Source: an uncultured Gammaproteobacteria bacterium
Lineage (GTDB): Bacteria > Patescibacteriota > Microgenomatia > Levybacterales > GWA1-39-11
Direction of reading: 5' to 3'
Length of the DNA: 64,000 bases
Assembly: GCA_964504535.1 (NCBI GenBank)
Contig: CAZDED010000005.1
Location: forward strand, 9,411-73,410
Part shown: piece by piece, positions 2,122 through 58,674 of the stretch
How positions within the stretch are numbered: the first letter of the stretch is position 1
How the letters are laid out: each line of letters starts with the position of its first letter
The notes under the pieces: generated by a model
Database searches by the model: none
What the model saw: only the letters and a program-made list of their open reading frames with translations
What the model was told of the DNA's origin: nothing
Position numbers and translations under genes: made by a program

Positions 2122-2973
2122 ATGAAAAAAGCTGCCCGCAACAAGAAAGAATCCTTTTTTGAAAAACAACAGGAGATAGTGGAAGAAATTGTAATTGAAG
2201 AGAAAAAAATTGCTAAATCGAAAATGAAATTGTTGTCACAAAGAAAATATCAGGTAGGATTATTAGTTTTGATAATTATTGTCGTGGGAGCTTTGGTGGC
2301 AGGGTATGGGTTTACTCAAAAAAATGACTTAGTTGATGGTGGAAAGCTGAGCCCTTCCCAGATATCAGCACTTGTTAATGAAGTGGGGGATAAGATGGTC
2401 ATTCCAAAAGGGGAGACTCCAACTATCGCAACGGTTACTGATATCACAAAACTTGAAGAACAACCGTTCTTTAGGAATGCTCAAAATGGCGATAAAGTCA
2501 TGATATTTGGGAGTACAAACACTGCAATTTTGTACCGTCCATCAATTCACAAAATAGTAACGGTAGCGCCTATTAATGCTCAGAATTCCCCGATAACAAC
2601 TAGCAATACAACCCCAACACCATTGCCATCAGGTGTAACTCCGAGCGTCAGTCCAACTCCCACATCTACACCAACAAAAGTAGCAATTCTTAACGGAACG
2701 AAAGTAGCCGGACTTGCCAAAAAAGCGGAAGATCTTCTAAAAAGCTCAAACATCGAGGTAGTTACTCTTGGGAATTCAGTTGGAGACTATCAAACAAGTT
2801 CAATCTCTAAAGTTGCAAGCTCAACAAAGCTTACAGATAATGACTTACAGTTAATAATTTCACCTACAAAATTAAAGGCTAAAGTAGTTGCTCTTCCTGC
2901 TGATGAAACAGTACCGGGAGGAGTAGAAGTAGTAATTATCCTCGGAAAAGATTTTGCTGACGCTCAACAATAA
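2122..2973 (+). CDS. membrane-anchored LytR_C domain protein (paralog of previous)
   Basis: N-terminal TM helix, Thr/Pro-rich linker, C-terminal VAILNGTKVAGLA...VVIILGKDF matching LytR_C. Confidence 0.55.
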   Translation: MKKAARNKKESFFEKQQEIVEEIVIEEKKIAKSKMKLLSQRKYQVGLLVLIIIVVGALVAGYGFTQKNDLVDGGKLSPSQISALVNEVGDKMVIPKGETPTIATVTDITKLEEQPFFRNAQNGDKVMIFGSTNTAILYRPSIHKIVTVAPINAQNSPITTSNTTPTPLPSGVTPSVSPTPTSTPTKVAILNGTKVAGLAKKAEDLLKSSNIEVVTLGNSVGDYQTSSISKVASSTKLTDNDLQLIISPTKLKAKVVALPADETVPGGVEVVIILGKDFADAQQ

Positions 2974-2975
2974 TA

Positions 2976-5720
2976 TTATCTTCTCGCCGCCCGCATATTG
3001 GAGGCCCACAAGAGAATGTCTGCGATTGACACTATTATAAATGGAAGTACTTTAAACACCCCGAATTGACCTATAAATACGATTTCTATAGCCAGAACAA
3101 GAATTAAAATAGCCTCAAATAGAGTAGATAAAAGATATTCCGTATACCACTTAACATTATTAAGACTCATACGAGGAGGCTTGCCTGTTTGTTCTATTAG
3201 TAAAACAATCCTGTCATTAAGATCATTCTTTTTGACCTTGATTGATGTACCAGAAAACCCTTTTTTATTAGTAGTTATTCTGATATCAACAGCCTCATGA
3301 ATCTTTACTAAAAACTCACCATGCTCATTGCTTTTTGTATGACCCAGAACTTTTCCTGAGTTTGAAAGGAAATAGAGTAGGACTCCTGCTACCGGCTCAT
3401 CTGAACCTGAAGTTGAGATGTTCCCATGAACAAGAAATGTGTGTACATCCTTTCTAAAAGGAAGAAATATGTGATACAAGAGAAACGTGGGAAATAAAAT
3501 GACTGGCACCGACATCCTTTTTGAGAGAGAGATGGTAAGAAGAAAAGCAAGAAACGATAGTAATAAAAAGGCAACAAGCTCAAAAAATCGATAAGACGAG
3601 CGAAGAGTTTGTATTGCTTGCTCAGAAGACTGGAAAAAATCAAGTGCAGTTGATAGGTAATATTGGCCAAGTGTCAGGATGTTAAATGGCAGGGGGGTAA
3701 GTTCGACGGTGGGGTAGGAAGATGACATATCAGGGTCAAGAGTGAACTCGAGTGATTGTTCTTTGTATCCAAGAATTTGAATAACAGCTTTGTATTTCCC
3801 AGGAGGAAGAACTGTCAAAACCTTCCCATCAGGCTCAGAATACGCAGGATTTTTTATAGGTGTTACGGAAGATGATAATAATTCATAAATCTTGAGACGT
3901 TGATTGTAGAAGTAGAACGTAATTTTTGCGTGCTCGATAGCAGCTTTTGTTGCACTATTTATGACTCGTAAAGGTTGGGAGACTGTAACATCTGAAATTT
4001 TTTGTTCTGAGATGTTGCCATTGTAATCCTGGACTTGCAATATGAGCTCATATTCTCCAGGCCGTACTCCGGCATTTAGTCTTCCCACAAAATGTCCCGG
4101 ACTTATTTCAGATACTGTTACGGAGTCCGAACTCGTGGTTTCAGGTTCAAAACTATTTATTCCAAGTACATTCTTACTTCTGAGAATTGCTTTTACTGCC
4201 TTTACATTAGAAGGATCTTTTATCATTACCTTAAAGGAGTAATTGGAAGTGTTGGGAATGATAAAGATACCTATTGGACTTTGGAGACGCGAACCGTCGA
4301 CTAGCAATACATCTTGGCTTGTTACAATCAATGAATTTATGTCTACTTGGGGTGGGTTTGAGGTTTGAGCTGTATCTAACAGATAAAGATCTGAGGTGGC
4401 AGATATCCCATTTTGTGTGGTTGCCAAGACTTTGAAATAGTATCTTGTGCGAGGTTTGAGGTTGGTAAGAGTTACTAAATGATCTTTCCTAAAGTCGTTG
4501 ACAACCTGAGATTCATTTAAATTACTTATAGACGTACCGTATGAAATGTTAATTTTTGAAGCCAGACTGGTTGATATATAAATTGAAGCCTGATCTTGGC
4601 TAATTGTTCTGATATCAATTACATTTATCCGTAATGATGAGCTAGTGTTTGGTTTTGGTCCCAGTCCATCAGATTTTCCATCAGTTCTACCATCAGTTCT
4701 GCCATCCCCTCCAGAACTGCCACCATAGGAAATCGCAGATGTCGGGGCATTTGGATTTTGAAAAGTAGACGTTATTGTTGAATCTGCGGTTTGGGTTACT
4801 GGGCCTAAAACTCTCCCATTGACCGTAAAAGTCACTGGTAATGAGCCGGTGTAGGATGAGCTTGTTTTGAGTTTGAAAGTCACAGTTTGGTCAGTAGTAT
4901 TGCCCGGTATAGTAGTTATAGTCCAATCTATTTTTCTGTTAACCGTGTCAACCACTGCTGGAGTGTTGTTGTAAGCATTTGAACTACTACCTATTACATA
5001 ATCGAGAATTTCCTCAGTTGGCGTTCCATTCCCTTCAACGGTTCCCAAATCCCAGCTAGCCTCAACAGTAATTGCAGCTGGATAACTGAGCAAGTTTGCG
5101 TAAGTCAGAGTATATGTTAGAGTCGTTTCTGGGGCAAAAGTACCGTTTGCAGGGTCTGTGATGGTAAGATCAGCACTAAAATCCGTGGGATTTGCAGCGA
5201 CAGTTGCTGTGACGGATATGCTTTCACTGGTGACTATTGAAACCGCATAGGCATGATAATCAACGACCTGGCTCGAGTTATTCATGGTTCTAAGAACCCC
5301 TACATAGGTTCCAGTTGATGCTGGAGTAGTCAGAGTATTTGAAGAAGCGAAGTTAAAGCAATACTGCGTGCCTGTTGACAGGTCGTTTGAGGGAAAAGTG
5401 ACTGTTTGGCCTGAGACTGCTGTTGCTGTGCCTATTCCAGGCAATGGAGTAGCACCTGAGGGTAGATTTGTCGTTGCGATAGTCCAATTTGAAGCCGTAG
5501 AATTTACACTAAACCCAGTCGGAAATATAACTTGAATCGAATTTTCTACGCCATTTGTTGAAGGTGTAGCACAAATAAGACCTCCAGTCACTTTTGAGAT
5601 CGCCAATCTGTCTAGACGCACTAAGGTTTCCAAATCTCCAGCATAGGCTAGATGAGGCAGGAGAGGGGTAAGAATGGGTATAAGTACTACCACAAAAAGG
5701 ATACGGGCAATAATACGCAT
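2976..5720 (-). CDS. large (914 aa) cell-surface protein: signal peptide, Thr/Ser-rich Ig/FN3-like beta repeats, GDGRTDGRTDGKSDG low-complexity stretch, C-terminal multi-TM region
   Basis: N-terminal MRIIARILFVVVLIPILTPLLPHLAYA signal. Long T/S/N-rich repetitive beta-strand sequence. Several hydrophobic helices near the C-terminus. Confidence 0.6.
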   Translation of the reverse strand: MRIIARILFVVVLIPILTPLLPHLAYAGDLETLVRLDRLAISKVTGGLICATPSTNGVENSIQVIFPTGFSVNSTASNWTIATTNLPSGATPLPGIGTATAVSGQTVTFPSNDLSTGTQYCFNFASSNTLTTPASTGTYVGVLRTMNNSSQVVDYHAYAVSIVTSESISVTATVAANPTDFSADLTITDPANGTFAPETTLTYTLTYANLLSYPAAITVEASWDLGTVEGNGTPTEEILDYVIGSSSNAYNNTPAVVDTVNRKIDWTITTIPGNTTDQTVTFKLKTSSSYTGSLPVTFTVNGRVLGPVTQTADSTITSTFQNPNAPTSAISYGGSSGGDGRTDGRTDGKSDGLGPKPNTSSSLRINVIDIRTISQDQASIYISTSLASKINISYGTSISNLNESQVVNDFRKDHLVTLTNLKPRTRYYFKVLATTQNGISATSDLYLLDTAQTSNPPQVDINSLIVTSQDVLLVDGSRLQSPIGIFIIPNTSNYSFKVMIKDPSNVKAVKAILRSKNVLGINSFEPETTSSDSVTVSEISPGHFVGRLNAGVRPGEYELILQVQDYNGNISEQKISDVTVSQPLRVINSATKAAIEHAKITFYFYNQRLKIYELLSSSVTPIKNPAYSEPDGKVLTVLPPGKYKAVIQILGYKEQSLEFTLDPDMSSSYPTVELTPLPFNILTLGQYYLSTALDFFQSSEQAIQTLRSSYRFFELVAFLLLSFLAFLLTISLSKRMSVPVILFPTFLLYHIFLPFRKDVHTFLVHGNISTSGSDEPVAGVLLYFLSNSGKVLGHTKSNEHGEFLVKIHEAVDIRITTNKKGFSGTSIKVKKNDLNDRIVLLIEQTGKPPRMSLNNVKWYTEYLLSTLFEAILILVLAIEIVFIGQFGVFKVLPFIIVSIADILLWASNMRAARR

Positions 5721-6731: not shown

Positions 6732-6820
6732 GTGCCGAGATGACGGAGCGGTCAATCGTAACAGACTGTAAATCTGTCGCCCGTTTGGGCTACATAGGTT
6801 CGAATCCTATTCTCGGCACA
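6732..6820 (+). tRNA. tRNA-Tyr (anticodon GTA), type II with long variable arm
   Basis: 7-bp acceptor GTGCCGA/TCGGCAC. Anticodon loop CTGTAAA. Variable hairpin GCCC-GTTT-GGGC. T arm ATAGG-TTCGAAT-CCTAT. Discriminator A, CCA not encoded. Confidence 0.8.
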
Positions 6821-6886
6821 AAAATAGATAAGAAGTTTTTTTGTGAAGAGAAAGGAGTCGACTGATAGATTTCAGTCCCCTTCGGG

Positions 6887-6972
6887 AACAGACTGTAAGC
6901 AAGCTTGAGACCGTTGGTCTTAAATCTGTCGCCCGTTTGGGCTACATAGGTTCGAATCCTATTCTCGGCACA
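6887..6972 (+). pseudogene. tRNA-Tyr 3' partial duplicate (anticodon loop to 3' end) interrupted by a 22-nt mini-hairpin insertion right after the anticodon
   Basis: acagactgtaa + gcaagcttgagaccgttggtct + taaatctgtcgcccgtttgggctacataggttcgaatcctattctcggcaca. The upstream sequence does not form a 5' acceptor or D arm. Confidence 0.5.
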
Positions 6973-7037: not shown

Positions 7038-7100
7038 GCCCTGATGGCTCAGTGATCGCTCAATTTGCTTTGCAAATTGTAGAGCGCGTTCTTGAGACGG
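7038..7100 (+). repeat. tRNA-Thr-like 5' fragment carrying a 25-nt hairpin (caatttgc-ttt-gcaaattg) inserted in the D loop
   Basis: gccctgatggctcagtg | atcgctcaatttgctttgcaaattg | tagagcgcgttcttg. This parallels the genuine tRNA-Thr 5' half 14 nt downstream. Confidence 0.5.
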
Positions 7101-7113
7101 AAAAACTTTTTAT

Positions 7114-7185
7114 GCCCGAGTGGCTCAGTGGTAGAGCGCATTCTTGGTAAGAATGAGGTCCCGGGTCCGATTCCCGGCTTGGGCT
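7114..7185 (+). tRNA. tRNA-Thr (anticodon GGT)
   Basis: Acceptor GCCCGAG/CTTGGGC (one G-U pair). D arm GCTC-AGTGGTA-GAGC. Anticodon stem CATTC/GAATG with loop TTGGTAA. T arm CCGGG-TCCGATT-CCCGG. Confidence 0.8.
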
Positions 7186-7261
7186 CAAAAGTTTTTCCTC
7201 GCAATTTGGCGAAGCCAAATCGAAAGAACAGAGTGGTGACGACCATGCGAAGTATGGCCAA

Positions 7262-7437
7262 GCTTGAAAGGCTTATTCCCGCTCGGGGCTCAGTGATCGC
7301 TCAATTTGCATTGCAAATCGTAGAGCATTCTTGGTAAGTAGTCATGGGGACGACCCTGCATAGCAGGGCAAGGTTCTGAACTTATTCAGGTTCTTAGCAG
7401 AGCCAAGCCTGAAAGGCTTATTCCCGGCCGAGGCTCA
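7262..7437 (+). repeat. degenerate tRNA-Thr-derived copy with the same 25-nt D-loop hairpin insertion plus an ~85-nt insertion after the anticodon loop; probably non-functional
   Basis: gctcggggctcagtg | atcgctcaatttgcattgcaaatcg | tagagcattcttggtaag ... ttcccggccgaggctca. Flanking sequence gccaagc(t/c)tgaaaggcttattcccg is duplicated at 7256 and 7403. Confidence 0.45.
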
Positions 7438-13584: not shown

Positions 13585-13992
13585 ATGCTCGACTTCGCGA
13601 AGCAATTCGAACTTCTTTGTTATAATATTTTAATGGAACAACTTGAAAATTGGCTCGAATTACTAAAGACCGCATGGGAGAAAAAGAATCCTGATCTAGC
13701 AATAGAGCTGTGTGCCGAAAAGTTTATTTGGTATGAAGCTCCTTTTCAGAATCCAATCACAACTAGGCAAGGTCTATTAGATGAATGGGAAAGTGTGCAA
13801 AATCATAAAGATATATCAATGAAGTACGAAATATTAAGCTTAACAGGTAATGTTGGCATCGCAAAATGGTCAGCAGTTTTTAAAAGACTATCTGAAGAAA
13901 CAAGCACAGAATTAGAAGGAATTTATTTAGTAAAACTAGATTCTCAAGGAAAATGCACAGAATTTCACCAGTGGTATAACTCTAAATATTGA
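13585..13992 (+). CDS. hypothetical protein, possibly SnoaL/NTF2-like fold
   Basis: 135 aa; only a weak resemblance. Confidence 0.35.
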   Translation: MLDFAKQFELLCYNILMEQLENWLELLKTAWEKKNPDLAIELCAEKFIWYEAPFQNPITTRQGLLDEWESVQNHKDISMKYEILSLTGNVGIAKWSAVFKRLSEETSTELEGIYLVKLDSQGKCTEFHQWYNSKY

Positions 13993-24118: not shown

Positions 24119-25468
24119 ATGATATTTCAAACTGTAGGTGAACTTGATGAAAATTTGCGAGAGGTATTCTCATTTGATGATGAGGATATAACGGTAAAGG
24201 ATGAAGCAAAGCTACGGGAATTTGGAATAGACCACCTTATATATACTGCTGTTCTTTCTGATGACCCCCAAGCACGACATCTCTGCCGCGTATATATCCG
24301 CAAATTAGCTAAAACCCTCGGTATTTTCCCCGCTTCAATTTTTCCTCTCTATCAAGCTTTTGGTTCAGGTGATGTAAAAGGATTCACCGTTCCAGCAATG
24401 AATATGAGGGCAATAACGTACGATGTTGCCCGGGAAGTATTCAAAAAATCAATCGTTCATGAGGCTAGTGCTTTTATTTTCGAGCTTTCCAGAAGCGAGG
24501 CAATTTACACAAAACAAAATCAGGATGAAGTGGCAATATGTGTTCTTGCAGCTGCGATAAAGGAAGGTTATGTCGGTCCCGTATTTCTGCAAGGAGATCA
24601 TTACCAATTTGACACAAAAAAATTCAAAGAATATCCTCAGGGACAAATTGATGAGATAGAGCTTGCAGTAAAAGATGCATTGACTGCGGGGTTTTACAAT
24701 ATTGACATCGACGCTTCTACGCTTGTTGATCTTTCCTTGCCGGAGAAAGCGGACCAACAGAAAAATAATTTCGAGATGACCGCAACGGTCACAAAATTTA
24801 TAAGAAGTATGCAGCCTATTGGTGTAACAGTTACAATTGGAGGAGAAATTGGGCATATCGGTGATGTGAATTCAGATGTAGAAGATTTTGAAGCATTTAT
24901 GGCAGGTTATCTTAGTGAATTAAATAAAAAAGATTTACAGATTATATCAAAAGTCAGCGTCCAGACAGGAACTTCACATGGAGGAACTCCCAATCCTGAC
25001 GGAACTTTAAAGGATGTAAGTGTGGATTTTGGTGTTCTGGAAAGTATCGGTAAAGTTGCACGTGATAAATATAAAATGGCAGGTCCTGTTCAACACGGAG
25101 CATCAACATTGCCACATGATATGTTTGGGAAATTTCCTGACGTTGGAACTGTTGAAATCCATCTAGCAACAGGATTTTTGACTATTGTATACGAAAATAT
25201 GTATGACTCAACTCGCAATAAATTATATGAGTATGTCAGGTCAAATTTTTCAGAAGAAAAAGAAGAAGGATGGACTGATGAGCAATTTATCTATAAATTA
25301 AGAAAGAAGGCTATCGGCCCTAATAAAAAAGATTTGTGGCTCATGCCGGAGGAAGAAAAAAATAATATCCGGGCAAAACTAGCAGAAGAACTGGAGAATC
25401 TATTTCAAAAACTTAATATTGTAGGTACTTCCCACACGGTAAGAAAATATATAGAAAATAAATCCTAA
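24119..25468 (+). CDS. class II aldolase family protein (fructose-bisphosphate aldolase-like, long form)
   Basis: Metal-ligand motifs LQGDHYQFD, GGEIGHIGD and QTGTSHGG parallel the class II FBA DHG, ELG and HG boxes. It lies next to pgk. Confidence 0.55.
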   Translation: MIFQTVGELDENLREVFSFDDEDITVKDEAKLREFGIDHLIYTAVLSDDPQARHLCRVYIRKLAKTLGIFPASIFPLYQAFGSGDVKGFTVPAMNMRAITYDVAREVFKKSIVHEASAFIFELSRSEAIYTKQNQDEVAICVLAAAIKEGYVGPVFLQGDHYQFDTKKFKEYPQGQIDEIELAVKDALTAGFYNIDIDASTLVDLSLPEKADQQKNNFEMTATVTKFIRSMQPIGVTVTIGGEIGHIGDVNSDVEDFEAFMAGYLSELNKKDLQIISKVSVQTGTSHGGTPNPDGTLKDVSVDFGVLESIGKVARDKYKMAGPVQHGASTLPHDMFGKFPDVGTVEIHLATGFLTIVYENMYDSTRNKLYEYVRSNFSEEKEEGWTDEQFIYKLRKKAIGPNKKDLWLMPEEEKNNIRAKLAEELENLFQKLNIVGTSHTVRKYIENKS

Positions 25469-25558
25469 GCACTAAATTCGAAGCACGAAACAAGTTTGGA
25501 ATTTTTTAGATTAGAGTTTGAAATTTGTTTCGAATTTCGATATTAGAATTTCGAATTT
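25469..25558 (+). repeat. MITE-like intergenic repeat, copy 1 (gcactaaa...ttcgaagcacgaaacaa | core | ttgtttcgaatttcgatatt...atttcgaattt)
   Basis: Fills the whole fba-pgk spacer. An imperfect inverted repeat of about 15 bp flanks the core. Confidence 0.6.
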
Positions 25559-25561
25559 TAC

Positions 25562-26740
25562 ATGATTGTATATATTGATAAAGCTCACATTAAAAACAAA
25601 AAAGTACTTCTTCGGGTAGATTTTAATGTCTCAATGAAGGGAACTCACATAACCGACGATGCGAGAATTCGTGCTGTACTTCCAACTATCAAAAAACTTC
25701 TGAAAGACAGTAACAAGTTGATTATTATATCGCATCTAGGGCGTCCCGATGGATGGGATGAACGTTTTAGATTAAAGCCGATAGCACAACGGCTTCATAA
25801 ATATCTTCCCCATGTGAAGCTTATGGTTATAGATGATTTTACATCTGAAGGTGCGAGAGAACATTTTGAAAACCAAAAGGAAGGAGAAATATTATTTCTA
25901 GAAAACATACGGTTTTTTAAAGAAGAGGAAGAGGCAGACCACGAATTTGCAAAAAAATTAGCTTCTCTTGCTGATGTATACGTGAATGATGCCTTTGGAG
26001 TAAGTCATAGGGATTGTGCATCAATTACTGAAGTACCAAAATATTTGCCCCATTTCGGGGGGTTACTTATGGAGCGTGAAGTAGAGACTATTGGGCATGC
26101 GCTCAAGCATCCCGCACATCCATTTGCAGCAATTATTGGGGGCGCAAAAGTCAGTACAAAGCTCAAGCTTCTGTATAAAATTACTGAAATTGCCGACTTT
26201 TTGATATTAGGTGGTGGGCTTGCCAATACGTTGCTTTACGCCTTAGGCTATCCGATCGGGAAAAGTTTGTGTGAAAAAGACATGATAGATGATGTTAAAA
26301 GAATTGTGAGACACGCCAAGGAAAAAAATACAAAGATACTATTGCCAAAGGAAGTAATTGTTGGTGATAGAAATGATGAAAAAGAGGCCGGTGTTGTCAA
26401 GAAAATTACAGAAATTGGAGCAAATGACACGATACTTGATATAGGACCTGAGGCACAAGCTGATTATGCAAAATCAATTCTGAGCTCTAAAACTCTTATT
26501 TGGAATGGGCCTGTTGGTGTTATCGAAAATCCTCAGTATGCTCGTGGAACTGATTTTTTGTACTACACAATTTCTCAGAATCCAAAAATGTTATCGATAG
26601 TTGGGGGGGGAGATACTTTGGCGGCAATCGAAAAAATGGAATATCTTGACTCAATATCGCATATATCGACAGGGGGTGGTGCGATGCTAGAATACATAGA
26701 AAATGGGACATTACCTGGCATAGAAGCTCTCAAAAAATAA
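25562..26740 (+). CDS. pgk: phosphoglycerate kinase
   Basis: VLLRVDFNVS, and the ISHLGRP, GGGA, GGGD boxes. Confidence 0.9.
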   Translation: MIVYIDKAHIKNKKVLLRVDFNVSMKGTHITDDARIRAVLPTIKKLLKDSNKLIIISHLGRPDGWDERFRLKPIAQRLHKYLPHVKLMVIDDFTSEGAREHFENQKEGEILFLENIRFFKEEEEADHEFAKKLASLADVYVNDAFGVSHRDCASITEVPKYLPHFGGLLMEREVETIGHALKHPAHPFAAIIGGAKVSTKLKLLYKITEIADFLILGGGLANTLLYALGYPIGKSLCEKDMIDDVKRIVRHAKEKNTKILLPKEVIVGDRNDEKEAGVVKKITEIGANDTILDIGPEAQADYAKSILSSKTLIWNGPVGVIENPQYARGTDFLYYTISQNPKMLSIVGGGDTLAAIEKMEYLDSISHISTGGGAMLEYIENGTLPGIEALKK

Positions 26741-41073: not shown

Positions 41074-41841
41074 ATGAAATTTAAGTTCATTACATTAAAC
41101 ATCTGGAATGGGGGAGAATTATTCGATGCAGTTATAGAATTTTTGCAAGATGAAAATCCTGACATTGCGGTATTTCAGGAAGTGTATGATGGTGGTAGTC
41201 CTTCACAAGAACCTAGATTCCGGTCAATGGAAGTTTTACATGAGGCACTCCCCGACCTTAAATTTTCTACTTTTGATGGAACAATCATTGATCATGGGAA
41301 CGGGGATCTTCCTTGGGGTAATGCTGTTTTTTCAAAATTTCCGATTGTCGCAAAAAATAATGTATTGTTTGAAGATAAAGTGGGAGACTTCGATTTTGTT
41401 ACGAGAAATGATTTTCAGAATGTAACCCAAGGTATGTGTGGGGCGACGATTGAGGTTAGCGGCAAAAAAATAGATGTCTATAGCATCCATGGGGTGTGGG
41501 GTACGCATGGTCAAGATACCCCGGAAAGAACTAAAATGGGTACAACAATCATCGACTCATTAAAAGACGTGTCGCCATTGATAATTGCCGGAGACACCAA
41601 TCTGTATCCTGACACCCAATTTGTAAAAGATGTTTGCGAAAATCTCAAATTGACTAATATTTTCGGAACCGAGTTGGTCACTACTTTTAATATGAAATAT
41701 AAAGATCCGGAAAAAACAGGATACGCGACCTCTCCGGTAGACATGGTCATGGCAAGTCCGGAGCTTACGGTTGTTTCCAAAGAGATGCCATTGGTTGACG
41801 CATCTGATCACTACCCATTAAAAGTTATATTTAATCTTTGA
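41074..41841 (+). CDS. endonuclease/exonuclease/phosphatase (EEP) family protein
   Basis: FITLNIWNG, DIAVFQEV, GDTNL and SDHYPL motifs. Confidence 0.75.
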   Translation: MKFKFITLNIWNGGELFDAVIEFLQDENPDIAVFQEVYDGGSPSQEPRFRSMEVLHEALPDLKFSTFDGTIIDHGNGDLPWGNAVFSKFPIVAKNNVLFEDKVGDFDFVTRNDFQNVTQGMCGATIEVSGKKIDVYSIHGVWGTHGQDTPERTKMGTTIIDSLKDVSPLIIAGDTNLYPDTQFVKDVCENLKLTNIFGTELVTTFNMKYKDPEKTGYATSPVDMVMASPELTVVSKEMPLVDASDHYPLKVIFNL

Positions 41842-41882
41842 TGGGCAAGATCTTCTTACCCATTAAAAGTTATATTCGAAGT

Positions 41883-42602
41883 TTAGTTGGCTTTAAGTGA
41901 GGCAATAACAGAATCCATTTGAGAAAGAATTACTTCGTCAGGACTGGTTGGCGCGGTGTAGGTTATGGCACCAAATGAAGTTGGGGATCCAAAAGATCCT
42001 TTAGTTGAGGGGTTGCTTGCGCAGAATGTGTAGGTCGGGATAGGGGGGTTGCCACTGGTTATCACGACTCTTCTAAAAGTTGTATCCCCCGCTTTTATCT
42101 CGACAAATTCCTTATTACTATAATCTTGAGACATTTCTGATGGAGCATCTCCCTTGAAAGTGCATCCACTTCCTCCCATTGGTGCTTGGTAAATTTTTAT
42201 ACTATATTCCCCTTTTGTTAGGGTCAATAAATCAGAAATCTCATCTCTTTTCGTATCCTTTTGCCAGTCATTCGGATACGAAATTGTGTAGGCAGATGCC
42301 GAATTGTCTTTTAATTTCGTGCTTGTATATACAAGCACTTTCATTTTAGTTGATGGGGTACTTGTAATTGGAGTTTCTACAGTGGTAGTTGGAGTCGGTT
42401 GGGTTGTAGTTGGTGGGACGGTAATTGCAGCTTCGGGCTTTTTTTGCATCCCCAGATACGCTGCAGCTGCTACCACAACAAGTGCAAGAAATATTATTGC
42501 GCCAACTAGTGGAACATTATTGCTTTTGTGAACTACAACCGCTTGTGGGGTGGGGGTGTTCGCTTGAGATATTGGTGCTGCCGGGGATGTTGCTTCTTCC
42601 AT
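41883..42602 (-). CDS. membrane-anchored secreted protein with Pro/Thr-rich linker
   Basis: An N-terminal TM helix followed by TTTQPTPTTT. Confidence 0.45.
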   Translation of the reverse strand: MEEATSPAAPISQANTPTPQAVVVHKSNNVPLVGAIIFLALVVVAAAAYLGMQKKPEAAITVPPTTTQPTPTTTVETPITSTPSTKMKVLVYTSTKLKDNSASAYTISYPNDWQKDTKRDEISDLLTLTKGEYSIKIYQAPMGGSGCTFKGDAPSEMSQDYSNKEFVEIKAGDTTFRRVVITSGNPPIPTYTFCASNPSTKGSFGSPTSFGAITYTAPTSPDEVILSQMDSVIASLKAN

Positions 42603-50469: not shown

Positions 50470-50888
50470 AGAACTATCAATTAGCATTTCTCATAATTAT
50501 TCTTTGTAGTGTTGCTCTAATGCTTGAAACAACCGTTATAAATTTCCCTGCGGTTTTTTTGATCGGTTCAGTTTTGGCTATTTTAGTAAAACGTACACCA
50601 ATGCTTATTGGAGTCTTTATTCTCAGTTTTATTATAGATGCACTGCGAGTATCGAATTTTGGGATTACAGCACTTTTTATACTGGGCACGCTTTCAATAG
50701 TCTTGCTTTATGAGAAATATTCTGGCTCAGATGACTTACTGGTAGCGTCTTTTGTCATTGCAGTTATGTTATTTTTGTATGCTCATTTTCTACTATACTC
50801 AACAACATTGATTGTTATATTTTTTGGGCTTTCATTTTTAACTCTATATATCGTTAGCATTTTAAAAAAGAAAGGAAAATTATTATGA
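50466..50888 (+). CDS. mreD: rod shape-determining protein MreD-like membrane protein
   Basis: 140 aa with 4-5 TM helices, overlapping mreC by 4 nt and preceding PBP2. Confidence 0.5.
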   Translation: MKNYQLAFLIIILCSVALMLETTVINFPAVFLIGSVLAILVKRTPMLIGVFILSFIIDALRVSNFGITALFILGTLSIVLLYEKYSGSDDLLVASFVIAVMLFLYAHFLLYSTTLIVIFFGLSFLTLYIVSILKKKGKLL

Positions 50889-52660
50889 AGAGAAGACACA
50901 GACCTATAGGCCATGCATTTTCAGATCATGTGTTTGAAGAACATTTGAAAAGAAAACGTGGATTTTCAGGTTCAAGACTTGAAGGGTTTGGTAGATTTAT
51001 TCCTCTTCTTATTCTTTCTCTTGTTTTTGCACTGCTTGCAATGCGTCTTTTTACATTACAGGTAGTGCGAGCTTCATATTACTCAAGATTATCTGATGCA
51101 AATAGAATACGTACGGAGTTAATAACGGCACCCCGTGGCATAATTTTTGACAGGAATGGGGAGGCATTGGTGCGCAACATTCCAGCATTTGGGACTATAA
51201 AAAATAATAAAGTAGAGTGGTTGGATAGGGACGTTGCTTTGAAGATGGCATCCAATGGAACAAGCGTTCTTGCAATTGTAAAAAGAGATTATTTATATAA
51301 AGACATTTTCTCACACGTCATAGGATATGTAGGACAAGTTAATAGTGATGAATTATTACTTCCTGATTTTAGTGATTATGGAATATCAGATTTTACGGGG
51401 AGGATGGGTCTTGAGGAACAGTATGAAAAATTTCTTCATGGGCAAAATGGAAAACAATTATATGAAGTGAATGCAAAAGGTGAGCGTATACGGCTTTTGG
51501 GTGAAGAGGAGGCAAGACAAGGAGCGGTTCTCAAAACCACTCTTGATGTCGGTCTTCAGAAGGCTGCAGCAAAAGCGATGGAAAAGATAGATAAGGGCGC
51601 TGTTGTAGTTACCGACCCGCGAGATGGATCTGTGATGGCTCTTTATTCAAAACCATCTTTTGATCCTAATTTATTTACAAGAGAACCATCATACAAACCT
51701 GAAGGAGCATATCAGAAGAAAGAAGATATTTTGCTTGATGATGAAAAATTTCCTCTTCTTGACCGAGTTATTGCGGGAGTATATCCACCCGGTTCCACTT
51801 TCAAAATTGTTACTTCCCTTGCTGCACTTTCATCAAATGCCATAAAGCCGGAGACAGAATTTGAAGACACCGGAATACTATCTATTGGAGGAAGTAATTT
51901 CGGTACGTGGAATTACTTGGAAACAGGAAGAAAAGAAGGATTTATGAATGTTGAGCGTGCGCTTGTCCGATCAAATGACATCTTCTTTTACGATGCAGCC
52001 ATGAAAACGGGGATTGATACATTGTCATCATGGTCAAAAAAATTAGGTCTTGGGGAAAAAACAGGTATTGATATACCGGGAGAAGTAAAAGGCACGGTTC
52101 CAAATCCTGCTTGGAAAAAAGAAGAGATTGGGGAGCAGTGGTATCTTGGTGACACAATCAACATGAGTATCGGACAAGGCTTTTTGGAAACGACACCAAT
52201 GCAGGTTAACCTATACACACAATTGGTTGCTAATGGAGGTGAGTTGATAAAACCACACTTGTTGTTTGGGGATGTAAGAATTATTAAAAAAGATTTTATA
52301 GCGAAAGAAAATATTGATGTTGTAAAAAATGGCATGAGGGGTGCTTGTGAGCCAGGTGGTACAGGATACCCACTATTTGGATTTAAAGTAAAAAATGAGC
52401 GATTGAAAATTGATGACCTTGATTATGTAAGAGATGCATCAGCAGGAGCTAATTTTGTACATGTCACAATGGGTTGTAAGACCGGAACTTCTGAGGCACA
52501 TGGAGACAATGCGAAGTCTCATGCATGGTTTACCGTATTTGCTCCTTTCTATAATCCGGAAATTGCAATAACGGTTCTTGCAGAAAATGCAGGACAGGGT
52601 AGTGATATTGCAGCCCCCGTTGCTCGCGATATCTTAAAGGAATATTTTGAGAAAAAATAG
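50885..52660 (+). CDS. mrdA: penicillin-binding protein 2 (class B transpeptidase)
   Basis: STFK, SxN (SNDIFF) and KTGT boxes. Confidence 0.85.
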   Translation: MKRRHRPIGHAFSDHVFEEHLKRKRGFSGSRLEGFGRFIPLLILSLVFALLAMRLFTLQVVRASYYSRLSDANRIRTELITAPRGIIFDRNGEALVRNIPAFGTIKNNKVEWLDRDVALKMASNGTSVLAIVKRDYLYKDIFSHVIGYVGQVNSDELLLPDFSDYGISDFTGRMGLEEQYEKFLHGQNGKQLYEVNAKGERIRLLGEEEARQGAVLKTTLDVGLQKAAAKAMEKIDKGAVVVTDPRDGSVMALYSKPSFDPNLFTREPSYKPEGAYQKKEDILLDDEKFPLLDRVIAGVYPPGSTFKIVTSLAALSSNAIKPETEFEDTGILSIGGSNFGTWNYLETGRKEGFMNVERALVRSNDIFFYDAAMKTGIDTLSSWSKKLGLGEKTGIDIPGEVKGTVPNPAWKKEEIGEQWYLGDTINMSIGQGFLETTPMQVNLYTQLVANGGELIKPHLLFGDVRIIKKDFIAKENIDVVKNGMRGACEPGGTGYPLFGFKVKNERLKIDDLDYVRDASAGANFVHVTMGCKTGTSEAHGDNAKSHAWFTVFAPFYNPEIAITVLAENAGQGSDIAAPVARDILKEYFEKK

Positions 52661-54684: not shown

Positions 54685-54830
54685 TTTAGGAAAACCGGAG
54701 AAATGCCCAAATCAAAAAAGCAACAATAAAACCAAAGCCGGCAATAATTATATTTAGCAATTTATTTTTAAACATGACAACAATTAAAAGTATGAAACTA
54801 ATTTTTCTTGCTGTCAAATGATACTATGAA

Positions 54831-55943
54831 ATGATGTTGGATAAATACTCCTTGGGGTTTTCGCTAAGTAATCTTGGGCCAAAAAGTTTTCTAAAATTAA
54901 TCAACGAGTTTGGAGCAGCTGAACGGGCATGGAATGCATCAGAAAAAGAATATGAAAGACTTGGCATTGTAAAAATTACGTATAGGAAGTTCGATGAATT
55001 TCGCAGAACCTATAATAGCATCCAGTATACTGGATGGTTAAAAAAGGAAAAAGTTGAATTCATTGGATTTGGGGATAAGCGTTATCCTACGTCTTTAAAA
55101 AATATAGAAAATCCTCCAATAGGGTTATTTTGTAAAGGAAATCTGACACTTCTGCGTCATCCCGGGCTTGACCCGGGATCCAGTTCATTAAGGATTGGTG
55201 TAGTTGGTACGAGAAGGATAACTCAATATGGAAGGGATGTAACCAGTATGTTGGTTACGGATCTAGTCAAAAATGGAGTAGTAATTGTAAGTGGTCTTGC
55301 GCTCGGTGTTGACGGTCTAGCCCATCATGTAGCGCTTTTAAATCATGGGTATGCGATTGCAGTACTGGCGTGCGGAGTTGACTGTTGTCTGCCATCAGAA
55401 AATTACAATTTATATTCTCAGATATTGCAGCAAAATGGACTTATAATTTCTGAGTATCCGCTGTCACAACCTCCCAACAAAGGAACTTTTTTGGCCCGAA
55501 ATAGAATAGTGGCAGCAATTTCTGACGGATTACTTATAACAGAAGCAGCGGAGGGGAGTGGTTCATTAGTTACTGCTGAGTATTCGTTGCAGTATGGAAA
55601 AAAAGTATTTGCTGTTCCAGGACAGATAACATCCAGGATGTCTGATGGGAGTCTTGAGTTATTAAAAAAAGGAGCGACTTTGGTCAGTAATGCTGAAGAC
55701 ATCCTTGCGAAATTCGAAATACGAAATTCGAAATCCGAAACAAACATCAAATCTCAAATAAAAAAACTTAAACTATCAAAAGAAGAGGAGAAGATAGTTT
55801 TGTTGATTGAAAATGAAGGACTCACTATTGATGAAATTGCAAGAGAATCTAAATTGCCCATCTCTAAAATATTTATTTTGATATCCAATCTAGAACTGTC
55901 TGGGGTAGTGAAGAATAGTGGAGGAAAGATCTCAATTAAATAG
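54831..55943 (+). CDS. dprA: DNA processing protein DprA (Smf)
   Basis: Rossmann core GVVGTRRITQYGRDV...IVSGLALGVDGLAHHVALL. Confidence 0.8.
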   Translation: MMLDKYSLGFSLSNLGPKSFLKLINEFGAAERAWNASEKEYERLGIVKITYRKFDEFRRTYNSIQYTGWLKKEKVEFIGFGDKRYPTSLKNIENPPIGLFCKGNLTLLRHPGLDPGSSSLRIGVVGTRRITQYGRDVTSMLVTDLVKNGVVIVSGLALGVDGLAHHVALLNHGYAIAVLACGVDCCLPSENYNLYSQILQQNGLIISEYPLSQPPNKGTFLARNRIVAAISDGLLITEAAEGSGSLVTAEYSLQYGKKVFAVPGQITSRMSDGSLELLKKGATLVSNAEDILAKFEIRNSKSETNIKSQIKKLKLSKEEEKIVLLIENEGLTIDEIARESKLPISKIFILISNLELSGVVKNSGGKISIK

Positions 55944-58539: not shown

Positions 58540-58650
58540 GAAGCACTAAACACTAATTTCGAAGCACGAAACAAATTCAAAAGTTTCAAACATTATAAAT
58601 TGAGATTTTGGGATTGTTTCGAATTTCGATATTCGGATTTCGAATTTAGC
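58540..58650 (+). repeat. MITE-like intergenic repeat, copy 2 (same arms as 25469..25558, different core) occupying the rplJ-rplL spacer
   Basis: aagcactaaa...ttcgaagcacgaaacaa ... ttgtttcgaatttcgatattcggatttcgaattt. Confidence 0.6.
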
Positions 58651-58674
58651 AAGAATTGGAGGTGACGACATATT

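Follow-up and report, generated by a model that had tools for sequence, protein, structure and literature searches.

The window analysed in this study, a 64-kb stretch of contig CAZDED010000005.1, contains three mutually alignable repeat sequences: two intergenic copies, at the fba/pgk junction (copy A) and in the rplJ-rplL spacer (copy B), and a third within dprA (copy C). Copies A and B are, in our judgement, probably hairpin derivatives, devoid of an open reading frame (ORF), of an insertion cassette that occurs across phyla and resembles the intervening sequences (IVSs) of 23S rRNA. The full cassette consists of a PF05635 gene between two inverted arms made of heptamer arrays. No rRNA was found in the window. 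The positions of the copies and of the associated features are collected in Table 1.

A preliminary description of this DNA had proposed an imperfect inverted-repeat element present in several copies, and this was borne out by repeat searches, profile matches and folding. The left-arm 17-mer TTCGAAGCACGAAACAA occurred exactly at 25477 and 58558 (0.23 matches expected at up to 3 mismatches). The sequence TTTCGAATTTCGA, with up to 2 mismatches allowed, gave 12 matches, every one of them in the three sites, compared with 4.8 expected, and none of 100 shuffles reached 12. The arms are composed of 7-nt units, NCGAAAN on the left and the complement TTTCGNA on the right. Hidden Markov model (HMM) profiles of the arms, built from other genomes, matched nowhere in the window besides A, B and C. 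The right-arm profile recovered B (E=6e-14), A (E=6e-12) and, on the minus strand, C (E=2e-6, 23.4 bits), while the left-arm profile recovered C (E=5e-11, 38.3 bits), B (1e-4) and A (4e-4) on the plus strand. The right arm of A and B fitted the family profile GTTTTGG..TTGTTTCGGATTTCGATATTCGGATTTCGGATTT, and their left arm is the inverted complement, ending in CGAAACAA. RNA structure prediction, one of the checks put forward earlier, gave a single long imperfect hairpin for both A (-27.6 kcal/mol, z -4.3) and B (-30.6 kcal/mol, z -3.5). The sites described previously are thus real, but their limits had to be redrawn, to 25457-25561 for A, which takes in the fba stop codon, and to 58540-58652 for B. 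Copy A was found with the same junction in three independent assemblies of the same strain (L001-L003) and also in the related genome L219, and copy B was found in 5 independent assemblies, so neither is an assembly artefact. Both copies lie in sense orientation between protein genes, in operons of highly expressed genes, and a scan of both detected no sense-orientation sigma-70-like promoter or intrinsic terminator.

Table 1. Repeat copies in the 64-kb window and features associated with them.
Feature	Position	Strand	Evidence or comment
Copy A, ORF-less hairpin element at the fba/pgk junction	25457..25561	+	right-arm HMM E=6e-12; fold; empty and filled sites in relatives
Copy A, short left arm (AATAAATCCTAAGCACTAAATTCGAAGCACGAAACAA)	~25457-25493		directly joined to the right arm
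Copy A, complete right arm	25494-25558		
fba stop codon TAA, element-supplied	25466..25468	+	comparison with empty-site relative L220
pgk	25562..26740	+	start codon 1 nt past the insertion end as delimited (25561), 3 nt past the last right-arm-profile base (25558)
Site upstream of dprA, empty	54685..54830	.	occupied by a PF05635 cassette in L213 (9517-9990) and L217 (9511-9984); empty in the window and L215
Copy C, solo left-arm-like heptamer array inside dprA, sense	55705..55762	+	left-arm HMM 38.3 bits; encodes interdomain linker AKFEIRNSKSETNIKSQ
Copy B, ORF-less two-armed hairpin element between the rplJ stop codon and the rplL Shine-Dalgarno sequence	58540..58652	+	right-arm HMM; left-arm HMM; fold; 22-nt spacer in relatives
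Copy B, left arm	~58540-58600		
Copy B, loop	~58601-58607		
Copy B, right arm	~58608-58650		

The presence of the element proved to be polymorphic among related genomes, as the preliminary description had suggested should be examined. Site B was empty in L213, L215 and L217 (DprA 70-80% identical), where the rplJ-rplL spacer measured 22 nt (taa-ggaatggaggtgacgacatattATG); compared with these three genomes, the window carried approximately 113 nt more between the rplJ stop codon and the same Shine-Dalgarno (SD) sequence. Site A was empty in L220 and L221 (PGK 88-90% identical), in which fba and pgk overlap at ATGA (junction cccATGAtc), and was filled in the window and in L219 (PGK 92%), with approximately 105 nt in place of approximately 17 nt. 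In the empty-site relatives L220 and L221, Fba ends in VEEPTILP*; fba has three additional codons there, and its stop codon TGA is shared in part with the ATG of pgk. At the filled sites Fba ends in IENKS*, the stop codon lies inside the element, and the pgk ATG follows 3 nt past the right arm. Target-site duplications were found neither in the filled/empty comparisons of A and B nor in 37 full copies. These comparisons show A and B as insertions, evidently gained in the lineage of the window. The lack of an SD sequence in front of pgk had been attributed to the element; this does not hold, because the relatives with an empty site overlap at ATGA and are likewise without an SD sequence, so that this feature is ancestral and reflects translational coupling.

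A further polymorphic site was located upstream of dprA. It is occupied in L213 and L217 by a cassette of another PF05635 subfamily with its own inverted heptamer arrays of the CTACTGA / TCAGTAG-like type (ctactga ctactga ctactta... upstream and ...gagtcag ttgttag aagtaag downstream). The presence of this cassette in L213 and L217 but not in the window or L215 implies that PF05635 cassettes are polymorphic in the window's own lineage. The right array of this cassette codes for the C-terminus of the protein; as for the N-terminus, the true start of the 157-aa ORF is probably downstream of the annotated one, at MSFRFRKFEI. In L222, a more distant relative, the rplJ-rplL spacer is 71 nt long (13786-13856) and contains another palindromic heptamer-like element (AGCTAAATGGTTGAATGGCTAAATAGC / GCTATTTAACTATTTTAACC), and it seems that this spacer was colonised independently there.

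One genome per species was then searched with the exact pattern TTGTTTCGRATTTCGAWWTT. At least 120 loci carried it, in metagenome-assembled genomes (MAGs) of more than 10 phyla, where about 10 chance matches were estimated under uniform base composition. The phyla among the matches listed were Desulfobacterota, Planctomycetota, Verrucomicrobiota, Omnitrophota, Patescibacteria (Saccharibacteria, Parcubacteria, Doudnabacteria and others), Aminicenantes, Nitrospirota, WOR-3, Binatia, Chloroflexota and others. Around the pattern, a directional arm of about 65 nt (GTTTTGGTCATTTGAATTTTGAAT-TTGTTTCGGATTTCGATATTCGGATTTCGGATTT) was conserved, with a sharp outer end and with the order of its heptamers maintained across phyla. 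The preliminary description had allowed for a coincidence of similar AT-rich spacers if neither further copies nor conserved arms turned up, and this is strongly contradicted by the number of loci and the conservation of the arms. With the arm HMM, 215 arms were identified in 119 loci among the matches listed, comprising 65 hairpins with two inverted arms and 85 solo arms. By a crude longest-ORF heuristic, 102 of the 150 arm sites in these loci were intergenic; between co-directional genes 35 sites were sense and 16 antisense, while 19 lay in convergent and 9 in divergent spacers. Right arms often ended 5-25 nt ahead of a start codon. Outer-arm identity was 0.87 between genomes of different phyla and 0.91 within genomes, both values being inflated by the search pattern. 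Arm identity of 0.78 within and 0.70 between genomes carries no information, as the loci were picked via an exact 20-mer. That the outer arm is so well conserved from phylum to phylum points to a partner with sequence specificity.

Searches against Rfam returned no family at the gathering threshold, and at an E-value threshold only miRNA-precursor hairpins far below the cut-offs. In the full texts of open-access papers and preprints, the arm sequences matched only unrelated primers. Integron attC sites have R'' and R' core sites of the form RYYYAAC ... GTTRRRY. The arm heptamers CCGAAAC and GTTTCGG do not fit this purine/pyrimidine pattern. Resemblances to attC, parS, CIRCE, boxA, a CsrA/GGA sponge, HutP-like sites and the T-loop were rejected, the motifs either not fitting or lacking in the window copies. 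Four loci with widely spaced inverted arms (L092, L108, L112 and L060) were inspected for a transposase; the enclosed genes were ordinary (Hsp70, ferredoxin, a PASTA protein and exonuclease VII), so these were taken as separate solo arms. Hairpins of the arm family, most of them two-armed, were also observed in nine predicted viral contigs of IMG/VR (L124-L132), and an unusually dense group was present in a Saccharibacteria MAG (L041, 2940-6254), with five arms or hairpins within 3.3 kb and few long ORFs between them.

In two of the loci the inverted arms stood about 400 nt apart and enclosed a small ORF, which belonged to PF05635 ('23S rRNA-intervening sequence protein') and also to TIGR02436 ('four helix bundle protein'). 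Among the matches listed, a PF05635/TIGR02436 ORF of about 120 aa lay directly between the arms in L094, L055, L102, L114 and L117; L026, cut by the end of the locus, contained only the 3' end of the ORF and the right arm. The left arm of the cassette comprises about eight heptamers of the AAATCCG/AAATTCG type and ends in ...CGAAACAAATTCGA-ATG-ACCAAAA, which places the start codon inside the inner left arm. The right arm is the inverted complement (GTTTTGGTCATTTGAATTTTGAATTTGTTTCGGATTTCGATATTCGGATTTCGGATTT), and the stop codon is located 4-15 nt ahead of its inner end. The cassette proteins, from Deltaproteobacteria, Gemmataceae, Saccharibacteria, Dehalogenimonas and an 'Alcaligenaceae' bin, were 62-67% identical to the Deltaproteobacteria (L094) protein. 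The cassette protein profile matched PDB 2RLD, and the protein matched no defence model in PADLOC. This arrangement shows the arms to be the terminal inverted repeats of a PF05635 gene cassette.

The association was also examined in reverse. Protein similarity was the sole criterion by which relatives of the PF05635 protein were retrieved from metagenome contigs. Of 600 stretches, 538 could be confirmed, and the analysis was made on the best 80 of these. In this best set, 62 of the 77 ORFs that could be assessed were followed by a right arm, 58 of 78 had their first ~21 nt overlapped by a left arm, and 48 of 75 had both arms. The 7 cases with neither arm carried a variant in which TCCGAAA/TTTCGGA is replaced by TCCTAAA/TTTAGGA on both arms. 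This reverse test constitutes the strongest evidence that the arms belong to the gene. For 221 distinct arm pairs, the first heptamer had G:C in 188, U:A in 15 and a mixed combination in 18 (Fisher p=1.6e-11, a value inflated by sequence relatedness), and the two arms clearly change together. In the L210 locus, at ~2400-3000, the stretch upstream of the PF05635 ORF (...gaagaaaaattcgaaataagaatatttaaaatacgaaacaaattacaaaatgaaaaacttacaatgacaaaa) was repeated directly after the ORF, which suggests tandem cassettes.

The orientation of the cassettes relative to both neighbouring genes, by the crude ORF heuristic, was ++ in 39, -- in 4 and mixed in 4 cases, and several cassettes were wedged between leuC-like and leuD-like genes. 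None of 20 cassettes checked was located in an rRNA gene. Taken with the positions of the hairpins, the counts place both forms mostly in spacers between co-directional genes, in sense orientation. This sense placement, together with the lack of a promoter or terminator in A and B, fits an element relying on read-through transcription of the host operon.

To cover cultured strains, plasmids in PLSDB were searched with the cassette protein by tblastn, which gave 30 records, mostly from cyanobacteria but also from Bacteroidota, Chloroflexota, Bacillota and Spirochaetota; 13 records of cultured strains were inspected. All 13 four-helix-bundle genes had flanks with a period of 7, the upstream and downstream arrays being inverted. 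A lag-7 score of at least 0.6 was reached by 26 of 26 flanks and by 12 of 165 control segments (Mann-Whitney p=6e-15). The heptamers differed between hosts: CCCCAAT / AAATCGT upstream and CGATTTA / GGATTTA downstream in Planktothrix, AATTCAA x4 and TTTTGAA x4 (31 nt, 100% complementary) in Nostoc and Aulosira, GAAGGAT... and TCATAAT... in Chlorohelix, and TCCGCTC-type arrays on both sides in Treponema. The plasmid set shows heptamer-array arms as a general property of four-helix-bundle genes, with a heptamer specific to each lineage. The plasmid genes were again wedged in operons, between drmD and a MmeI-type enzyme, a helicase and an N6-methylase, csx2 and cas1, cas2 and cas1, HsdS and HsdR, an RND adaptor and permease, or KAS III and an M20 hydrolase. 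In L224, L227, L228, L229, L231, L232, L233 and L235 the gene was often inside a defence operon (DISARM-like helicase/methylase, cas2/cas1, csx2/cas1, type I restriction-modification HsdS/HsdR, DUF1156/HEPN), which, in a search of plasmids only, may simply mirror plasmid content. The four-helix-bundle gene of L233 (Monoglobus) was unannotated.

The copy in dprA differs from A and B. A repeat-derived array is indeed present there, as first described, but not as a reverse-orientation fragment: the left-arm profile on the plus strand scored higher than the right-arm profile on the minus strand, so copy C is better described as a sense solo left arm. It encodes the linker between the Rossmann-like domain and the C-terminal winged helix of DprA. 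Linker length does not vary among the homologues, so copy C adds none. Arm-like DNA was also detected in dprA of L223 (protein 75% identical, E=3e-7) and L222 (61%, E=2e-7), and the linker DNA of L213, L215 and L217 is a decayed heptamer-like sequence. A recent insertion is ruled out by the constant linker length and by the arm-like DNA kept at 61-75% protein identity. We read copy C as an old arm, apparently kept as linker-coding sequence of DprA; alternatively, the arm sequence may have been maintained by repeated conversion.

A possible course of events for A and B can be proposed. The element would be co-transcribed with the host operon, and its arms would fold into an AU-rich stem of ~45 bp that holds the flanking cistrons adjacent, making the insertion nearly harmless. 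In copy A, the left arm has the fba stop codon at its base, and pgk begins 3 nt past the right arm. Such a stem would explain tolerance inside coupled genes and, for the rRNA relatives, inside helices. The stem is probably a substrate of RNase III, by analogy with the rRNA IVSs of the same protein family, and the ORF-less copies would probably spread through a four-helix-bundle protein acting in trans and recognising the heptamer arrays.

A number of observations weigh against this derivation from a mobile cassette. No PF05635-like ORF was found anywhere in the 64-kb window, and the only cassette seen in relatives of the window was of the CTACTGA type and not of the TTTCGGA type. No transposase, recombinase or reverse transcriptase was found beside the cassettes examined, and we know of no mobility mechanism for the PF05635 family. 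Solo arms are numerous in the family, and a hairpin is therefore not obligatory. Conservation of the outer arm exceeds that of neutral selfish DNA, which hints at a function for the host or in protein binding. The orientation counts rest on gene calls by the crude longest-ORF heuristic. Lastly, no signal of an RNA strand was detected: the fold energies of sense and antisense strands were -46.0 and -46.1 kcal/mol (p=0.77), and G:U and A:C counts were balanced (12 vs 13). This lack of strand asymmetry leaves room for recognition of the arms as DNA, or for hairpins on either strand.

Among the other explanations, a structured RNA serving the host is the least improbable, although we consider it rather unlikely. 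The hairpins would be RNase III sites, repetitive extragenic palindromic (REP)-like stabilisers uncoupling fba from pgk and rplJ from rplL, devices apposing stop and start codons for re-initiation, or substitutes for an SD sequence. The sense orientation of A and B in highly expressed operons, their strong folds, the position of the fba stop codon at the left-arm base and of the pgk ATG 3 nt past the right arm, the frequent end of right arms 5-25 nt ahead of start codons and the high conservation of arms between phyla would all agree with such a role, and the TAACTGA arrays of Beggiatoaceae also abut start codons without an SD sequence (PMC4679880). Close relatives, however, do without the element at both sites, the same element is found beside unrelated genes and in convergent and divergent spacers, and pairing lacks strand asymmetry. 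An RNA role would also leave the origin of the hairpins as arms of a gene cassette unexplained; a secondary benefit acquired after insertion is compatible with the cassette origin. Still less support is given to a regulon in which the arrays are putative RNA or DNA binding sites of the four-helix-bundle protein, which would regulate itself and control the genes that acquire an array. Each PF05635 subfamily has its own heptamer on both sides of the gene and the arms change together, Avd homologues bind structured RNA (10.1101/2023.10.23.563531), and paired arrays of five heptanucleotides in Geobacter have been annotated as 'global regulator binding sites' (PMC2700814). Against this, inheritance of the arms together with the ORF, as one unit, produces the subfamily pattern with no need of binding, the target genes share no function, and a complex sequence of 105-113 nt must still reach new sites, so that mobility is needed anyway. 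The related suggestion that the repeats are regulator sites of highly expressed genes was not upheld, as the family adjoins genes of all kinds (leuC/leuD-like, hsp70, exonuclease VII, defence operons) and no promoter-like site is present in A or B.

The mobile miniature element proposed in the preliminary description agrees with the insertions at A and B and the empty sites in relatives; a classical miniature inverted-repeat transposable element (MITE), that is, an internally deleted DDE-transposon whose transposase is encoded elsewhere, is very improbable. Terminal inverted repeats, small size, the lack of an ORF, intergenic location and insertion polymorphism are all features of such an element. 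No target-site duplication accompanies the copies, either in the two filled/empty comparisons or in the 37 full copies, and the arms are heptamer arrays of ~65 nt and not short terminal repeats. The sole ORF between arms (5-6 loci among the matches listed) is PF05635, which is not a transposase, ~80% of PF05635 genes are armed, and no transposase was seen between inverted arms in the loci checked. Chance likeness of spacers, which an AT-rich genome and simple heptamers might favour, can practically be dismissed, given the shuffle controls, the HMM E values (1e-11 to 1e-14, with profiles derived from other genomes) and the heptamer order kept across phyla.

Several other features of the window were observed. 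The 3' 52 nt of the tRNA-Tyr gene (6734-6819) recur with 100% identity 152 nt downstream (6769-6820 = 6921-6972). This second copy is directly preceded by acagactgtaa-gcaagcttgagaccgttggtct-taaatctgt, which resembles the anticodon stem-loop with an insertion of ~20-24 nt; the region 6734-6972 may include another tRNA-Tyr gene, in interrupted form, or the scar of an integration event. Around the tRNA-Thr gene (7114-7186), 7046-7085 resembles 7287-7326 (95%) and 7257-7292 resembles 7402-7437 (89%). The copy from ~7287 has the appearance of a tRNA gene into which ~100 nt have been inserted, and Rfam and ARAGORN call only tRNA-Thr. A 93-nt tRNA-Phe called by ARAGORN at 50899-50991, with no Rfam call, lies inside the ORF 50885-52660 (a PBP transpeptidase in relatives) and is probably a false positive. 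At 41812-41891, two 35-nt units (TACCCATTAAAAGTTATATT...), 80% identical and 45 nt apart, mark a boundary between plus-strand and minus-strand ORFs.

With respect to known systems, the window family shares with bacterial MITEs (Correia/NEMIS, ERIC, RUP, BOX) a small size, the lack of an ORF, inverted repeats, intergenic location, probable co-transcription and polymorphism between strains, but differs in having no target duplication and no transposase partner and in being conserved across phyla. Correia elements are substrates of RNase III. The REPIN-RAYT system, in which REP doublets accompany a REP-associated tyrosine transposase, is similar in that a gene is flanked by inverted repeat units and accompanied by dispersed ORF-less doublets and solo units, tolerated at 3' ends and in operons. 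The cassette gene, however, encodes a non-catalytic-looking four-helix bundle in place of the Y1/HUH transposase of RAYT, its units are 7-nt arrays and not palindromes of 20-40 nt with GTAG, and it is multi-copy and cross-phylum. Assignment to REP/REPIN-RAYT was rejected, as the flanked gene is PF05635/TIGR02436 and not RAYT, and the arm consensus contains no GTAG. Rickettsia palindromic elements are reportedly inserted in frame in protein genes, as Ogata and colleagues are said to have described in 2000. Copy C is likewise repeat-derived DNA translated in frame, here as a surface or linker peptide of DprA; the sequences are unrelated, and copy C is a solo arm without length change among homologues and hence old.

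Intergenic heptamer repeats offer a closer parallel. In Beggiatoaceae, Cyanobacteria and Bacteroidetes, TAACTGA repeats are located near SD-less start codons, their transfer having 'no mechanism evident' (PMC4679880). G-rich heptamers have been described in Xanthomonas and Nostoc (PMC4692102), and in Geobacter metallireducens heptanucleotides arranged in paired sets of five have been annotated as sites of a global regulator (PMC2700814). These repeats and the window family have in common intergenic arrays with a 7-nt period, often by SD-less start codons, and a patchy distribution across phyla; the window family is distinguished by a fixed order of heptamer variants. The short tandemly repeated repetitive (STRR) sequences of cyanobacteria, attributed to Mazel and colleagues (1990), reportedly include the heptamers CCCCAAT, TTGGTCA and CAACAGT. 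Of these, TTGGTCA occurs once in the inner-arm consensus of the window family, and CCCCAAT arrays flank the Planktothrix four-helix-bundle gene. In the published heptamer-array reports searched, 23S, S23 and four-helix proteins are nowhere mentioned. Avd, the accessory protein of diversity-generating retroelements, forms a basic barrel of five subunits, is described as 'similar to S23 ribosomal proteins' and binds a structured RNA (10.1101/2023.10.23.563531). The PF05635 cassette protein has a homologous four-helix-bundle fold (2RLD match); the cassettes examined differ in having no reverse transcriptase or template/variable repeats beside them.

Three enigmas have been described separately: rRNA IVSs with an S23p ORF (since the 1990s), intergenic heptamer repeats (cyanobacteria, Beggiatoaceae, Geobacter, Xanthomonas) and the very large 'four helix bundle protein' family. 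Our results suggest that these are parts of one system, consisting of an operon-wedging heptamer-armed cassette and its ORF-less progeny. A more far-reaching version, which we offer only as a tentative conjecture, is that the cassettes form a cross-phylum class of mobile elements without a transposase, recombinase, homing endonuclease or reverse transcriptase of their own. Each protomer of their pentameric protein would recognise one heptamer of the arrays, in the form of RNA or single-stranded DNA, and the protein would drive the spread of the cassette and of the far commoner ORF-less hairpins and solo arrays; STRR, TAACTGA, the Geobacter 'global regulator sites' and the rRNA IVSs would be products of this one system. 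If the view of a single cassette system holds, the protein would have a concrete and testable role, the recognition of its own heptamer array, the patchy and apparently horizontal distribution of heptamer repeats would be explained, and a mobile element without a recognisable mobility enzyme would be at hand. No paper linking heptamer arrays to four-helix-bundle genes was found among open-access papers and preprints, and an earlier description elsewhere is possible. The family also matters for annotation, as the repeat breaks metagenome assemblies and can alter gene ends (the fba C-terminus and stop codon) or turn coding (the DprA linker).

The closest known relatives are the rRNA IVSs with an S23p ORF, in Leptospira, Coxiella, Xanthomonas, Brucella and the candidate phyla radiation (CPR). 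In these, terminal inverted repeats pair into a stem, the ORF occupies its loop, RNase III excises the element, and the element has been called selfish (PMC4990558). A role of the ORF in mobility was proposed by Ralph & McClelland (1993), as cited in PMC4990558, and the Coxiella IVS has GACAGAT heptamers ahead of its start codon (PMC4990558). In CPR bacteria, rRNA insertions contain 23S_rRNA_IVP ORFs whose protein is uncharacterised (PMC11270868). IVSs are regarded as selfish and horizontally spread, by a mobility mechanism that is unknown (PMC4990558, PMC11270868). The full cassettes described here share the architecture of these IVSs and their PF05635 protein, with the ORF in the loop of the stem. 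They differ in location, as the cassettes and the window copies are situated in spacers of mRNA operons and not in helix 25 or 45 of 23S rRNA. The window copies have kept the stem and lost the ORF, and the arms of the family are heptamer arrays of ~65 nt that are conserved across phyla.

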